Shown piece by piece: positions 33,389 to 40,633 of a stretch of 64,000 nucleotides of DNA. A program made the translations under genes and the position numbers. Numbering within the stretch: the stretch's first letter is position 1; each line of letters opens with the position of its first letter. The notes beneath the pieces are model-generated. The model saw nothing but the letters and a program-made list of their open reading frames with translations, made no database searches and was not told where the DNA came from. Origin of the DNA: Alphaproteobacteria bacterium (GTDB taxonomy: Bacteria > Pseudomonadota > Alphaproteobacteria > RF32 > CAG-239); NCBI GenBank assembly GCA_015062235.1, contig SUUZ01000004.1, positions 17,497-81,496 of the forward strand. The letters are read 5' to 3'.

Positions 33389-33390
33389 TA

Positions 33391-33457
33391 AGGAAGATGC
33401 CTTACCTTGCTCACTAATGTTTGCTCAGGGCATGACGTTTTTGAAAGGGAGTATAAT
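33391..33457 (+). promoter_or_regulatory. repeat-element copy A: SD + mini-ORF (MPYLAH*, 33397-33417) leader upstream of the Cys-rich protein gene
   Basis: AAGGAAGATGCCTTACCTTGCTCACTAATGTTTGCTCAGGGCATGACG...GTATAATT. Homologous copies at 35178-35278 (+) and 40345-40440 (-), each in the same orientation as the downstream gene. Confidence 0.6.
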
Positions 33458-33597
33458 TTAGAATTTTCAAGGAATATTACCCTCGTATAAATTAATTGTT
33501 TTTTCATTTTTTTTGTGGTATAATAAACTTAGTTAGGTGCATTTATGTTTTGTCATAAGTGTGAGTTTGGGGTAGCTCAAAAAAAAGGAACAAGGAC

Positions 33598-34920
33598 ATG
33601 TCGACATTATTGAAAAAAATAGCTATTGTTGCTCTTATTGCTTCCGTAGCGCCAACCATAGCAATGGCGAGAGTTAAACCATTGCATGAGTATAAAGGAG
33701 TTCTTAAACAAAAGAAGAACGAAGTAACCTGTGAAAGCAAAGGATATTTGAGTGCTTCTGTTGGTTGTGCAACCTGTAGTGAAGTTACTATATCTGGTGG
33801 TACGACATGTTATAGTTGTAGTCATAACAATACGCTTTATCCTTTTACTCAAGGGGACTATCCTGAAGGGATTGTATGTGATGACAGCTGTACTATACCA
33901 GGGGGAACAACCCAATACTCATGTAGGTGTGATACGGCAGGAGGATACTATTCTAAAGATAGCTTTATTAGCACGACTTCTTTGGTCTATAAGGGTGGTG
34001 TGTTTGAGATGTCTCCTGTTACAGGTGATAACTTGATTTGTTATGATTCTAACTCTTCTTATTGGTCATGTACTTCTGGTACTACTAAAAAATCAGCGTC
34101 TGATCTTGGTTATACAGGATCTTTGTCTGGTAGTTTTACCTTTGCTTCAACTAAAAATGGTTCGTTGAAGCCGTATATATCCTACTATGGAGCATCAAAT
34201 TCTACGAATAGTAATATTGCTACTATTTGTGTAAAACTTAGAGGATTTGAAGTTCCTTTGTATGCAGAAACAGCCTCTAAAGAGACTTGCTTAACCTATA
34301 GTCGTGGCTATGATGCTTTAACTAGAACGAATTATTTCTATTATACTGGTTGTGAGACTGGTGGTAATTGTGTTAGTTCAACTGGAACCTGTGGTGCAGC
34401 AACAACACATAGTGTTACAGGCTGGACTGGTAGTGCTACCAAAACTATAGATTGTAAAGAAGCTACAGGTTGTAATGTCGGCAAGGTAGCAACAAATGCT
34501 TTTTGTTATGGTTCAACATCTGCTTCAGCTAAGGTATATAACAGCAGTGGAGTTACTACTGTTTCTTATAGTGGTGGTAAGATTGGTGGCAAATTTGCGG
34601 CTACGACAGAAAGTGTTGGAAATTATACCTGTGTTAAAATTACTGGTTGTGCTGAAGGTTATGTTGAATCGACACTTAATAGTACAAATCTTAACTTACC
34701 AAAAATACTTGAATCAAATGCTTCAGATGATACAACGTCGTATGATGCTGCTATAGCCTATGATTATAACACTTGTACAATGACTTCTAATTGTACGGAT
34801 ACTACTGATAGGTTGATTTGTCGTATGCCAACAGCTTGTAAAAATGATGCTGGATATTATGACACAACTTGTGATACGGGTTGTTGGGATGGTTTCTTAA
34901 GTTGGTTTATGCCACAATAG
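33598..34920 (+). CDS. Cys-rich, Ser/Thr/Gly-rich secreted protein (440 aa, ~27 Cys), novel
   Basis: Signal peptide MSTLLKKIAIVALIASVAPTIAMA. Recurrent C-x(2-4)-G-Y modules (CESKGY, CDTAGGYY, CAEGYV, CKNDAGYY). No family recognised. SD AAGGAACAAGGA before the ATG and a terminator after. Confidence 0.7.
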   Translation: MSTLLKKIAIVALIASVAPTIAMARVKPLHEYKGVLKQKKNEVTCESKGYLSASVGCATCSEVTISGGTTCYSCSHNNTLYPFTQGDYPEGIVCDDSCTIPGGTTQYSCRCDTAGGYYSKDSFISTTSLVYKGGVFEMSPVTGDNLICYDSNSSYWSCTSGTTKKSASDLGYTGSLSGSFTFASTKNGSLKPYISYYGASNSTNSNIATICVKLRGFEVPLYAETASKETCLTYSRGYDALTRTNYFYYTGCETGGNCVSSTGTCGAATTHSVTGWTGSATKTIDCKEATGCNVGKVATNAFCYGSTSASAKVYNSSGVTTVSYSGGKIGGKFAATTESVGNYTCVKITGCAEGYVESTLNSTNLNLPKILESNASDDTTSYDAAIAYDYNTCTMTSNCTDTTDRLICRMPTACKNDAGYYDTTCDTGCWDGFLSWFMPQ

Positions 34921-34940
34921 AACTGAGCATGTCTTGAAGC

Positions 34941-37792: not shown

Positions 37793-37840
37793 TAAGAAAC
37801 CCGCTTTTATAAAAGCGGGTTTCTTATTTGGTATTTTATT

Positions 37841-40300
37841 TTAGCAAGGTTTAATATTCCAAATGCATTTAGCATATTCTTTGACAGATCTATCGGATGT
37901 AAATTTGCCAATTCTTGCTACATTGAGTAAAGCTTTTTTATTCCAAACATCTCGATCAAGAAAGTCTTTTTCAACTTCTTCCATTTTCTTATCAAATGCT
38001 TCTAAATCAGCTAGAACAAAATAATAGTCTCGATTTATTAGTTCTTCGAAAATTGGCTTAAACAACAAAACATAATCTTTTTCGCAGAACATATTTGAGT
38101 TAAGAGCGTTTAGAATACGTTTGATATAATTGTTGTTTTCATATATTTCTCGAGGATTGTAGGTTGAACGTTTGGCTTGAACTTCTTCTTCTGTTAAACC
38201 AAATAGATAGAAGTTTTCTTTACCTACTTCTTCTCTAATTTCAATATTAGCACCATCCAAAGTTCCTAATGTTAAAGCACCATTCAAGGCAAATTTCATA
38301 TTGCCTGTACCAGATGCCTCAAAACCAGCAGTTGACGACTGAATACTTAAATCAGCCGCAGGAATCAAAACCTCAGCTAAAGATACTTTATAATCAGGCA
38401 TAAATACGACTTTAAGCATATCATTAACTCTAGGGTCATTATTAACAACACTAGCGACATTGTTAATCAGCTTAATTATCAATTTAGCAAAATTATACGA
38501 TGGAGCTGCCTTTCCTGCAAAAATATAGGTTTTAGCTACAGCTGGTTTGCGATTGTCTTTGATTATATCTAAATAATCGCCAATAACCTGTAAAATAGTC
38601 ATCAGTTGTCGCTTATATTCGTGAATGCGTTTGGCATGAACAATGAACATACTTTCAGGATTAACCAAAACACCTGTTGTTTTATGAATTATTTTGGTTA
38701 AACGTTGTTTGTTTTCAATTTTAACATCGTTAAATGCTTTAATGAATTTTTTGTCTTTGATAAATTCTTCAAGCCCCTTAAGCTCTTCTAAATCTGTAAC
38801 CCAACCGCTGCCAATTTTAGAATCAATCAACGATGCTAAAGCTGTGTTAGCATGTAATAACCAACGTCTTGGGGTGATACCATTAGTTACATTAGTAAAT
38901 TTTTCTGGCCATAATTCATAAAATTCTGGCACTAATTTAGATGTAATCAAATTAGAGTGAATTTGGGCAACACCATTGACTGAAAAAGAACCAACAATTG
39001 ATAAATTTGCCATTCGGATAATTTGATTATCGCCCTCACCTGAAACAATAGAAACTTTGCTCAATTTAGCTTCGTTTTCACCAAATTTAGAACGAGCAAA
39101 TTCCATAAAACGACGATTTATTTCATAGATAATTTGTAAATGACGTGGCAACATTTTGCCAATTATACGAGCAGGCCATGTCTCTAGTGCTTCGGGTAAC
39201 AAAGTATGATTGGTATAAGCAAAACACTTAGTGGTAATATCCCAAGCATCATCCCATTCTTGTCCATGTATATCAATTAAGATTCTCATCATTTCAGCAA
39301 TGGCTATTGCAGGGTGAGTATCGTTAAGTTGGATGACTACCTTTTCTGGAAGTTTGTGAAAATCATCGCTCTTTTCTAAAAAGCGGCGAACAATATCTTG
39401 TATCGCACAAGAAACAAAGAAATATTGCTGTTTTAGGCGTAATTCTTTACCTGATTCAACTGCGTCTGATGGATATAATACCTTTGAAATTGTTTCGGTT
39501 TCAATTTTCTCTTTCATCGCTTCGATATAACCGCCCTCGTTAAAGACATTTATATCTAATTCATCATCAGTTTTGGCTGAAAATAAACGCAAATAGTTAA
39601 CTGATTTACCTTGATAACCAACAATAGGAAAATCAAATGGAATTCCGTAAATGTTCTTAGTATTGAGCCATAAAAAATCTTTTGAACCATCAGGATTGTT
39701 CAAAACTTCAACGTTGCCGTAAATTGGAATTTTTACAATACGATCTCGTCTTGCAAATTGCCATGGAGATTCCTCTCCTTGCCAAGAATCTGCCTGTTCT
39801 ACTTGATAGCCATTTTCAAATTTTTGTTTAAACAAACCAAATTTGTAGTTTATGCCATAACCAAAACCAGCCAAACCAAGTGAAGCCATTGAGTCAAGAT
39901 AGCATGCGGCTAAACGTCCTAAACCACCATTGCCCAAAGCTGGATCATATTCGGCATCAAAAATTTCTTGTAAATTATTATAAGGGAAACCTTCAATTTT
40001 GATGTCTTGTAAAATATCAAATAAGCCTAACGAATGAAGATTATTTTCTAATGAACGACCGAGTAAGTATTCAATAGAAAGATAATAAACCCGTTTAGAA
40101 TTGCACTTGTTATAGCGAGCAATTGACTGATACATTTTATCCATTGCAAATTCTCTGACTGCTAAAGCAATGGCCTCTAAAGCTTCGTCTTTAGTGACTT
40201 CGCAAACACGTTTACCAATAAAATATTGAATATAATGTTCAATTGAAAATTTCAATCTAGCTTTATCTATTTCACTGATAATTGCGGACTTTTGTTTCAC
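37841..40300 (-). CDS. glgP: glycogen/alpha-glucan phosphorylase
   Basis: 819 aa with EKVVIQLNDTHPAIAIAEMMR and GTGNMKFALNGALTLGTLDGANIEI (PLP-binding region). GTG start at 40300 after an AAAAGGAG SD. No glgA/B/C nearby. Confidence 0.9.
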   Translation of the reverse strand: MKQKSAIISEIDKARLKFSIEHYIQYFIGKRVCEVTKDEALEAIALAVREFAMDKMYQSIARYNKCNSKRVYYLSIEYLLGRSLENNLHSLGLFDILQDIKIEGFPYNNLQEIFDAEYDPALGNGGLGRLAACYLDSMASLGLAGFGYGINYKFGLFKQKFENGYQVEQADSWQGEESPWQFARRDRIVKIPIYGNVEVLNNPDGSKDFLWLNTKNIYGIPFDFPIVGYQGKSVNYLRLFSAKTDDELDINVFNEGGYIEAMKEKIETETISKVLYPSDAVESGKELRLKQQYFFVSCAIQDIVRRFLEKSDDFHKLPEKVVIQLNDTHPAIAIAEMMRILIDIHGQEWDDAWDITTKCFAYTNHTLLPEALETWPARIIGKMLPRHLQIIYEINRRFMEFARSKFGENEAKLSKVSIVSGEGDNQIIRMANLSIVGSFSVNGVAQIHSNLITSKLVPEFYELWPEKFTNVTNGITPRRWLLHANTALASLIDSKIGSGWVTDLEELKGLEEFIKDKKFIKAFNDVKIENKQRLTKIIHKTTGVLVNPESMFIVHAKRIHEYKRQLMTILQVIGDYLDIIKDNRKPAVAKTYIFAGKAAPSYNFAKLIIKLINNVASVVNNDPRVNDMLKVVFMPDYKVSLAEVLIPAADLSIQSSTAGFEASGTGNMKFALNGALTLGTLDGANIEIREEVGKENFYLFGLTEEEVQAKRSTYNPREIYENNNYIKRILNALNSNMFCEKDYVLLFKPIFEELINRDYYFVLADLEAFDKKMEEVEKDFLDRDVWNKKALLNVARIGKFTSDRSVKEYAKCIWNIKPC

Positions 40301-40344
40301 AGCTATTACTCCTTTTGTTTAATAAATTACTTAACAACACCCAA

Positions 40345-40440
40345 CCATTGTCATGCTCTGAGCGAGCTTTAGAGAGCGAGGTAAGGTTTCATATTGTCAT
40401 GGCTCGTTTTCATGAGAAAACGGCTGGACATCTTCCTTGC
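40345..40440 (-). promoter_or_regulatory. repeat-element copy C (inverted): SD + mini-ORF (MSSRFLMKTSHDNMKPYLAL*) leader ~45 nt upstream of glgP
   Basis: Minus strand reads AAGGAAGATG[42-nt insertion with CGTTTTC-atga-GAAAACG hairpin]CCTTACCTCGCTCTCTAAAGCTCGCTCAGAGCATGACAATGG. Same orientation relative to glgP as copies A/B have to their genes. Confidence 0.6.
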
Positions 40441-40633
40441 TTTTAATAACAATGAAGATACCAAGTTATCCCAAGTTTAGAATTAATTGTTTGAGATATA
40501 GTTAATAATATAAGCCTTTTTTAGAGTAAATTTATAAAATTTTGCACAAAATTTTTAATTAACCATTTGAAATTTTCAAATCAATGATGTAATGTTAGCG
40601 GTAAGTTGAATATGAGTATTTTGAGGAAATAAA

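Follow-up and report, generated by a model that had tools for sequence, protein, structure and literature searches.

This analysis concerns the DNA that follows ftsI in a 64-kb stretch of an Alphaproteobacteria bacterium genome (contig SUUZ01000004.1 of assembly GCA_015062235.1, positions 17,497 to 81,496; hereafter, the window). The 5' sub-cluster of the division and cell wall (dcw) genes, mraZ-rsmH-ftsL-ftsI, is followed there by a gene for a Cys-rich protein (cys440, 440 aa), a gene for a highly charged protein (chg811, 793 aa), the reverse-strand alpha-glucan phosphorylase gene glgP, the block tolC-popZ-valS, and then trcR with a 538-aa open reading frame (ORF), hyp538, both on the reverse strand. 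Three copies of a short repeat are interspersed among these genes. The locus is probably an unexceptional, lineage-specific meeting point of conserved chromosomal gene blocks, in a clade in which the dcw cluster was split long ago. A preliminary description of the same DNA had proposed a recent break of this cluster after ftsI, followed by the gain of a host-interaction island of ~7 kb bounded by inverted repeats.

The window has a GC content of about 33% and matches, without a difference, a stretch of a 109.7-kb metagenome contig (JGI 3300018494 Ga0187911_10000412). Pfam agrees with the earlier gene calls, namely argS on the forward strand, gltX, recN, bamD, and lpxC on the reverse strand, and tolC, DUF2497/PopZ-like, and valS on the forward strand; the placements first given for mraZ-rsmH-ftsL-ftsI, the Cys-rich ORF, the charged ORF, glgP, and tolC-popZ-valS are borne out by Pfam and by the sequence (Table 1). 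The ftsI/cys440/chg811 join recurs in at least five independent assemblies (from JGI, ENA, and Logan; loci L001-L004 and L053-L055, with 23 contigs read for the comparison of L001-L004), and also in strains carrying another allele of cys440 (L053-L055). An assembly chimera at 33.4 kb, which had been raised as a possibility, is thus ruled out. GC skew, also suggested as a check, changes sign over glgP, but it follows gene orientation throughout and is, therefore, uninformative on the recency of a breakpoint.

Table 1. Features of the window around the ftsI-trcR interval (positions in the window).
Feature	Position	Strand	Evidence or remark
recN, bamD, lpxC	24750-28091	-	Pfam (LpxC, BamD/YfiO, RecN); divergent from mraZ
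RNase P RNA, bacterial class A	28035-28428	-	Rfam RF00010, 281 bits, E 2.6e-91
hyp270 (270-aa ORF between rnpB and mraZ)	28548-29360	-	poorly conserved
mraZ-rsmH-ftsL-ftsI (5' sub-cluster of dcw)	29793-33388	+	Pfam; block conserved in L005-L033
MraZ	29793-30278	+	Pfam MraZ
RsmH	30278-31198	+	Pfam Methyltransf_5
FtsI	31643-33388	+	Pfam PBP_dimer and Transpeptidase
Repeat copy A	33387-33472	+	fills the DNA from the ftsI stop to the conserved 5' edge of the cys440 cassette
Conserved region upstream of cys440	33473-33597	+	contains a putative promoter of the extended -10 type (TGGTATAAT, around 33516-33524)
cys440 (secreted Cys-rich protein, 27 Cys)	33598-34920	+	conserved signal peptide and C-terminus, hypervariable middle
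Hairpin with T-run, terminator-like	34937-34970	+	read from sequence; weak Rfam leader/terminator matches
Repeat copy B	35129-35272 (core 35173-35230)	+	window-specific DNA between the cys440 and chg811 cassettes
Conserved region upstream of chg811	35273-35410	+	nearly identical in L045, 86% nt identity in L056
chg811 (793 aa)	35411-37792	+	clade-restricted family; 34% charged residues; no signal peptide by eye
Perfect 19+19-nt palindrome	37791-37828		exactly between convergent chg811 and glgP
glgP (alpha-glucan phosphorylase)	37841-40300	-	PF00343, 1018 bits over 707/713 positions
Repeat copy C	40316-40440 (repeat about 40340-40440)	-	~125-nt insertion in the conserved glgP/tolC spacer
tolC, popZ-like (DUF2497), valS	40634-45893	+	Pfam (OEP/TolC, DUF2497, ValS) and NCBIfam
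trcR and hyp538	45969-48442	-	start of the block directly after ftsI in eight relatives

The dcw cluster is split after ftsI throughout the clade

A genome scan with FtsI gave 29 loci from metagenome-assembled genomes (MAGs) of uncultured gut or rumen Alphaproteobacteria, with FtsI 53-92% identical, plus outgroups. The record titles of these relatives mention ruminant, mouse, and human-gut catalogues, and the clade is presumably the GTDB order RF32. The relatives are represented by contig fragments only, and the genome of the window itself was seen over ~84 kb of contig; 23 loci with at least 1.5 kb downstream of ftsI (FtsI 53-77% identical) are informative on what follows this gene. The module mraZ-rsmH-ftsL-ftsI is present in all 29 gut-clade loci, and none of the 23 informative ones has a mur gene adjoining ftsI. 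All five outgroups (L034-L038; Elsteraceae, Hyphomicrobiales, Aestuariivirga, and two Caulobacteraceae) have the order ftsI-murE-murF-mraY-murD-ftsW-murG-murC. When their murE, murF, mraY, murD, ftsW, murG, and murC were used as tblastn queries (E<=1e-6), no match was found within the window. The window thus lacks the same-strand mur genes that follow ftsI in a canonical single array and keeps an intact, co-oriented 5' module, in which a 127-aa ORF between rsmH and ftsI has the size and the position of FtsL and is kept in relatives.

The preliminary description was, therefore, correct in calling mraZ-rsmH-ftsL-ftsI intact and in finding no murE, nor the genes beyond it, after ftsI, as it was in placing lpxC-bamD-recN divergently upstream of mraZ, where minus-strand Pfam matches locate it. 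The recent date that it gave to the truncation is contradicted by the 23 informative relatives. The placement of lpxC-bamD-recN divergent from mraZ is likewise shared, by 18 of 25 relatives informative on this side. Since both the split and this placement are common across the clade, they are ancestral and not a recent event at this locus; the break after ftsI and the position of lpxC-bamD-recN are old, clade-wide traits.

In the canonical alphaproteobacterial layout, the cluster runs on to ftsQ-ftsA-ftsZ-lpxC-bamD-recN. The same genes, with the same internal order of lpxC-bamD-recN, are found here, but the triplet is divergent from mraZ. One inversion spanning mraZ through ftsZ could have produced the divergent lpxC join, in which case murE-ftsZ would have been separated later. 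A single dcw cluster has been reconstructed for the proteobacterial ancestor by Leonard et al. (PMC8871954). As in the fragmented or sub-clustered dcw arrangements of other lineages (PMC8871954), mraZ-rsmH-ftsL-ftsI is kept here as a sub-cluster of preserved internal synteny, with mur and fts genes elsewhere; unlike in the reconstructed ancestor, the cluster of this whole gut-associated alphaproteobacterial clade is broken exactly after ftsI. A literature search turned up no publication that describes how the dcw genes are arranged in this clade.

Gene blocks between ftsI and trcR

In eight relatives (L008, L010, L012-L017), ftsI is followed by the block trcR-hyp538-ompA-like-suhB-efp-h168-zapA-ymdB, either immediately or with intervening orphan ORFs of up to ~3 kb in total, and the same block is inverted after ftsI in L019, L020, and L025. 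Other content after ftsI includes flagellar hook genes (L006, L007), nrdD (L009), and hlyIII (L005). Because ftsI and trcR are adjacent in the eight relatives, the lineage-specific interval of the window is not the 7 kb first proposed but the 12.6 kb from cys440 to valS (33.4-45.9 kb). The tolC-popZ-valS block, which had been taken for the ancestral flank, falls inside this interval, which ends at trcR.

Congeners join the same blocks otherwise. For example, ftsI meets hlyIII (reversed) in L005, lipo17, chg811, and trcR follow one another in L045, and glgP, a cys440 paralogue, and rpmI-rplT-pheST do so in L040. The three genes between ftsI and tolC are, accordingly, found apart (chg811 alone in L045, glgP with the cys440 paralogue in L040, and glgP alone in L046-L049) and, together with tolC-popZ-valS, in L056. 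The order in L056 is a Cys-rich secreted ORF (580 aa, 32 Cys), a chg811 homologue, glgP, tolC, popZ, and valS. An arrangement shared by close relatives, which would speak for an old layout, is thus nearly reached in L056, except that no homology between its Cys-rich ORF and cys440 is detectable. In this lineage, synteny breaks at the 3' end of ftsI, as seen from the eight relatives and the congeners; the rearrangement breakpoint suspected there is real in this sense, but the dcw break is not recent. A single inversion of the segment from chg811 to ymdB would relate an ancestor with ftsI-chg811-trcR to L025.

The junction genes of relatives are orphans without a Pfam family; synteny junctions at which orphan genes gather are a known parallel. 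Unrelated orphan ORFs lie at the same block junctions, either 3' of ftsI or 5' of chg811, in L013-L016 (11.7-14.6 kb) and in L056 (11850-13592), several with signal peptides and many Cys. Neither the L013-L016 junction ORFs nor the 580-aa ORF of L056 showed detectable homology to cys440. At the far end of the window, a flagellar cluster (fliG, FliMN-like, sigma-54 activator, flhA, ParA-like) occupies 53.3-64 kb. It runs on past the window in L052, with fliF, flgE, flgD, fliK, and then accB and accC; flgE-flgD-fliK-accBC is the block directly 3' of ftsI in L006 and L007.

The glgP product scores 1089.7 bits with TIGR02093 (cut-off 552.9), belongs to GT35 by the criteria of that family, and reaches neither the GlgP nor the MalP equivalog cut-off. 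Its translation contains EASGTGNMK, which we take to be the pyridoxal-phosphate lysine motif. Hundreds of homologues, labelled as Alphaproteobacteria MAGs, are 80-91% identical, and glgP is thus more conserved than FtsI. In L046/47, L048/49, and L056/57 (at least three other species), glgP and tolC-popZ-valS are divergent neighbours, just as they are in the window; glgP is a core gene with a fixed place beside this block, and the claim of three genes without housekeeping context is wrong in its case. No other glg gene was noted in the ~84 kb of contig examined. Within the block, the popZ-like ORF (42048-43148, 366 aa) matches DUF2497 with 31.5 bits (cut-off 27) at residues 336-361, and NCBIfam PopZ_fam with 37.6 bits, below the cut-off of 125.

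Features typical of mobile DNA were looked for as well. Pfam searches on all large ORFs between 19.8 and 48.4 kb, which left only cys440, chg811, hyp270, and hyp538 unassigned, yielded no integrase, recombinase, or transposase. The only tRNA gene of the window, tRNA-Lys (5758-5833), is far from the segment. The GC content at third codon positions (GC3) of cys440, chg811, and glgP is 0.19-0.24, against a window mean of 0.216 (standard deviation 0.042), and their codon-usage distance is 0.055-0.089, against 0.088 (standard deviation 0.025), which is within one standard deviation of the window mean. There was no match to plasmid or phage DNA, nor to defence-system models (PADLOC). The segment is not flanked by direct repeats of the attachment-site type, as repeat copies A and B are on the forward strand and copy C, on the reverse strand, lies inside a conserved spacer. 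Nor are the genes present or absent as a unit among relatives, in which they occur separately and in differing contexts.

The interval resembles genomic islands and integrative elements in being species-specific, in lying at a conserved junction, and in containing orphan genes and short repeats. Unlike these, it lacks an integrase and a tRNA gene close by, does not stand out in composition, and shows no similarity to plasmids or phages; most of it is core genes, including the essential valS. The label of a ~7-kb accessory segment, therefore, does not suit an interval that is longer, native in composition, and devoid of mobility genes, with a core glgP and an inherited chg811.

The cys440 and chg811 genes and the three-copy repeat

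The cys440 product has 27 Cys in 440 aa and, by eye, a Sec-type signal peptide (MSTLLKKIAIVALIASVAPTIAMA), so that its first description as a Cys-rich secreted protein stands. It has no Pfam family, and only five clusters of homologues were found in 5.8 billion proteins. Across these homologues, the middle varies, but the signal peptide, the C-terminus (...CWDGFLSWFMPQ), and almost every Cys position are conserved. The same pattern exists within the species, in which several alleles occur: L053 is 99-100% identical to the window over 6.3 kb, except in the middle of cys440 (33900-34900), where nucleotide identity is 76-91%. The within-species ratio of nonsynonymous to synonymous substitution rates (dN/dS) is 1.58-1.65 for cys440, versus 0.05-0.09 for ftsI, hyp538, and glgP. 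In strain L002 (JGI 3300018430), all 4 single-nucleotide polymorphisms in 15.9 kb are in cys440 or chg811, and the cys440 changes are nonsynonymous (3/3).

A hypervariable middle in a near-identical background, together with a dN/dS above 1, is characteristic of diversifying selection acting on a surface or secreted protein, and the cys440 product is most likely surface-exposed or extracellular, as a target of phage or host immunity. The class of hypervariable surface proteins under diversifying selection includes phage receptors and antigenic outer-surface proteins. With this class, cys440 shares conserved termini, a conserved Cys framework, a variable middle, and a dN/dS above 1, but it has no homology to any described family. 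As for the host-interaction cargo once suggested here, cys440 does behave like fast-evolving surface or secreted cargo, but glgP is core and chg811 vertically inherited. An AlphaFold2 model of cys440, built from 5 sequences, was unusable, with a mean predicted local distance difference test score (pLDDT) of 33.

The region upstream of cys440 is 82-87% identical to L040 and L044 at the nucleotide level, versus 34-51% for the mature proteins, and the promoter read in it is putative. The motif AATTAATTGTTT, with an AT-rich -10-like box after it, is conserved in the first part of this region (33473-33530) in three species, and a similar motif is invariant in the glgP/tolC spacer (40478-40510) of five species; such motifs may be a clade-typical promoter element. 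Downstream of cys440, a segment of ~62 bp with terminal inverted repeats (ATTCAC...GTGAAT) is found at 35008-35069. It is reversed in the congener L045 (612-673), where it follows a gene for a 17-kDa-antigen-like lipoprotein.

The start of chg811 was placed at 35411 from the N-termini of homologues, giving 793 aa instead of 811. An exhaustive HMMER search of 1.84 billion proteins gave a family of 65 representatives, mostly of 650-840 aa. The chg811 homologues of L045 (81% identical) and of L025, a distant relative, adjoin trcR, and that of L056 is convergent with glgP, as in the window. With a dN/dS of 0.24, which indicates purifying selection, chg811 is, as judged from these sequences, a vertically inherited, clade-specific family. 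In L056, identity is 86% in the upstream region and 29% in the protein, the 100 nt upstream being more conserved than the protein itself. The palindrome between chg811 and glgP is likely to be a bidirectional terminator.

No match to chg811 was found in Pfam, NCBIfam, PADLOC, or the sequences of the PDB, and one PHROG match was marginal (E 0.004). Its AlphaFold2 model has a pLDDT of 82, and Foldseek returned no match to it in the PDB or BFVD. A metagenome scan with the chg811 alignment retrieved a single truncated locus (L050), which added nothing. The protein is probably cytoplasmic. The description of chg811 as charged and effector-like is half right: K, R, D, and E make up 33.9% of the residues, but no N-terminal signal peptide is visible by eye, no toxin or eukaryote-like domain was found in Pfam, NCBIfam, PADLOC, or the PDB, and the neighbours are trcR and glgP instead of secretion genes.

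Three further observations concern this gene. Its upstream region contains TTAACCGC-N-TTAG, which looks by eye like a CtrA half-site. The neighbour that it has in two relatives, trcR, is a cell-cycle regulator gene. In L002, a GGA-to-TGA nonsense change at window position 36479 (codon 375 of the 811-aa ORF; L002 14837-14839) splits chg811 into two ORFs.

The repeat noticed earlier is a real element, as its core CCTTACCTYGCTC is present three times, at 33400 (+), 35186 (+), and 40374 (-), versus 0.01 times expected by chance. The copies are 77-85% identical to one another over 35-40 nt. Homology to L005 stops at 33391 and homology to L040 and L044 begins at 33473 and 33488, respectively, on the two sides of copy A; around copy B, which is absent from L045 and L056, homology to L044 stops at 35128 and homology to L045 begins at 35273. 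Copies A and B thus occupy exactly the window-specific DNA between the cassettes (33392-33472 and 35129-35272). Alignments with four other species (L046, L047, L048, and L056) show copy C to be inserted sequence. Its ends carry an imperfect direct repeat of ~15 nt (CTCCTTTTGTTTAATAA / TTCCTTGCTTTTAATAA), and it contains an extra 42 nt with a hairpin. The segment had been described as bounded by inverted copies; the inverted orientation exists, but with copy B inside the segment and copy C inside a conserved spacer, there is no bounding.

No further copy was detected in 20 kb more of the same contig (~84 kb in total), nor in any relative. A metagenome scan with the repeat pattern gave 0 matches and missed even the source contig, so that the collection scanned does not contain this organism. 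The repeat folds no better than shuffled sequences (z -1.5 to +0.5), and no terminal inverted repeats were seen in it. A structured RNA was, therefore, rejected, Rfam giving only terminator-like matches below threshold. A leader peptide read from the ATG of the repeat (MPYLAH*, MPYLAHLRSLK..., M...KPYLAL*) was rejected as well, as neither lengths nor frames are conserved. Inversion between the pairs A/C or B/C was discarded as a simple explanation because neither gives the glgP-to-cys join of L040. As the conserved upstream regions of cys440 and chg811 are 3' of the repeat, the latter is not their ancestral promoter region.

Short intergenic repeats include elements similar to miniature inverted-repeat transposable elements (MITEs) or to repetitive extragenic palindromic (REP) sequences, and the Rickettsia palindromic elements. 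The present repeat is likewise short, non-coding, and intergenic, and its copy C was cleanly inserted and may have duplicated its target. It differs from MITE- and REP-like elements in that only three local copies were seen in ~84 kb, with neither terminal inverted repeats nor a conserved hairpin. It reads as a local, species-specific intergenic element and not as an island boundary.

Some neighbouring genes of the window also deserve mention. The RNase P RNA lies between lpxC and hyp270 and shares ~57 nt with the 5' end of the longest lpxC ORF; since the LpxC of relatives aligns from residue ~30 onward, the true lpxC start is probably ~30 codons inside this ORF. The same RNA accounts for the GC peak at 28-29 kb. 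The GC3 of the adjacent hyp270 is 0.37 (mean 0.22), its codon usage deviates more than that of any other gene of the window, and it is only 27-44% identical to ORFs at the same position in relatives; it is either fast-evolving or a doubtful gene. At the other end of the interval, TrcR has a Lys-rich, histone-H1-like C-terminal tail encoded by short tandem repeats of 15/30 nt (45970-46130), and it is in this tail that the alignment of TrcR with relatives breaks down.

Explanations of the locus

The history that best fits these data would begin in a clade of uncultured, low-GC gut Alphaproteobacteria, the common ancestor of which would already have had its dcw cluster split after ftsI. In most of the genus, ftsI and trcR are neighbours; here, they are separated by 12.6 kb of native genes with three components. 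The first is a cassette complete in itself, in which a conserved, putative promoter region and a terminator accompany the gene for a diversifying, Sec-secreted, Cys-rich protein. The second is the clade-specific chg811, inherited vertically and evolving fast under purifying selection, and the third the conserved core block of glgP and tolC-popZ-valS. The copies of the repeat (55-100 nt) do not mark the ends of an island; two of them fill block junctions and one is cleanly inserted in a conserved spacer.

Several points weigh against this reading. The order and direction of the rearrangements are not reconstructable from contig fragments, and no one simple history accounts for the contexts in L045, L056, and L040 together. 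The excess of nonsynonymous changes in cys440 is modestly significant (about p 0.03, by a two-proportion estimate from counts), and a dN/dS above 1 may partly reflect the import of a divergent allele by recombination. In addition, all three repeat copies lie within 7 kb, two of them exactly at block junctions, as would be predicted if the repeat were a recombination site.

The latter possibility, in which the repeat is a recombination or crossover site, or a small non-autonomous mobile element, that moves or inverts the cys440 and chg811 cassettes at block junctions, is unlikely. It would account for the exact fit of copies A and B between the cassettes, for the discrete insertion of copy C with its imperfect duplication, and for the clustering of three copies in 7 of ~84 kb, each 5' of a gene and in the orientation of that gene. 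Statistically, this coincidence of orientation counts for little, since any copy in a divergent spacer is bound to lie upstream of one of the two genes. No recombinase or transposase gene was found nearby, the repeat has no terminal inverted repeats and no stable conserved fold, the glgP/tolC adjacency hosting copy C is unrearranged, the copies are only 77-85% identical over 35-40 nt, and no relative has the repeat. Site-specific or repeat-mediated shuffling that relocates cys440- and chg811-type genes to core-block junctions is, to the same degree, doubtful. If true, it would explain the orphan Cys-rich ORFs at the same junction elsewhere, as well as a block order that is unusually fluid across the clade.

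The recent-island model of the preliminary description is very improbable. It is consistent with the synteny junction at the 3' end of ftsI, with an arrangement that is species-specific relative to L005, L045, and L040, with the inverted orientation among the repeat copies, and with a secreted, hypervariable cys440 known from 5 clusters only. These observations are outweighed by a dcw split common to the 23 informative relatives, the most distant of which has an FtsI 53% identical, by a core glgP syntenic with tolC, by the vertical inheritance of chg811, and by native composition; copy C is inside a conserved block, and mobility genes, a nearby tRNA, and plasmid or phage matches were not found. 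In our view, the model is already refuted for the dcw break and for glgP. Equally hard to credit is co-regulation of cys440, chg811, and glgP through the repeat as a common cis-regulatory module, such as an operator or an upstream activating site, which the intergenic position of the copies, 40-210 nt upstream of start codons and in the same orientation relative to each gene, might suggest, but which conflicts with the absence of the repeat from L040, L044, L045, L056, and L046-L048, where orthologous promoters work without it, with its position 5' of the conserved upstream regions (33473-33597 and 35273-35410), and with a distance to the start codon that varies from ~40 to ~200 nt.

Read as a lineage-specific join of conserved blocks, the locus carries little weight as genome architecture: the gene blocks of this clade are reshuffled between species, and their junction here is not evidence for an island. 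Two of its genes may be of use to those who study these bacteria. The chg811 product represents a confidently modelled family of ~790 aa, with about 65 clusters, which is restricted to the clade and has no detectable relatives in sequence or fold. The cys440 product is a candidate surface antigen or phage receptor, and the gene a candidate strain marker. At the level of the clade, the separation of mraZ-ftsI from murE-ftsZ in a split dcw cluster is fixed across an entire group of uncultured gut Alphaproteobacteria.

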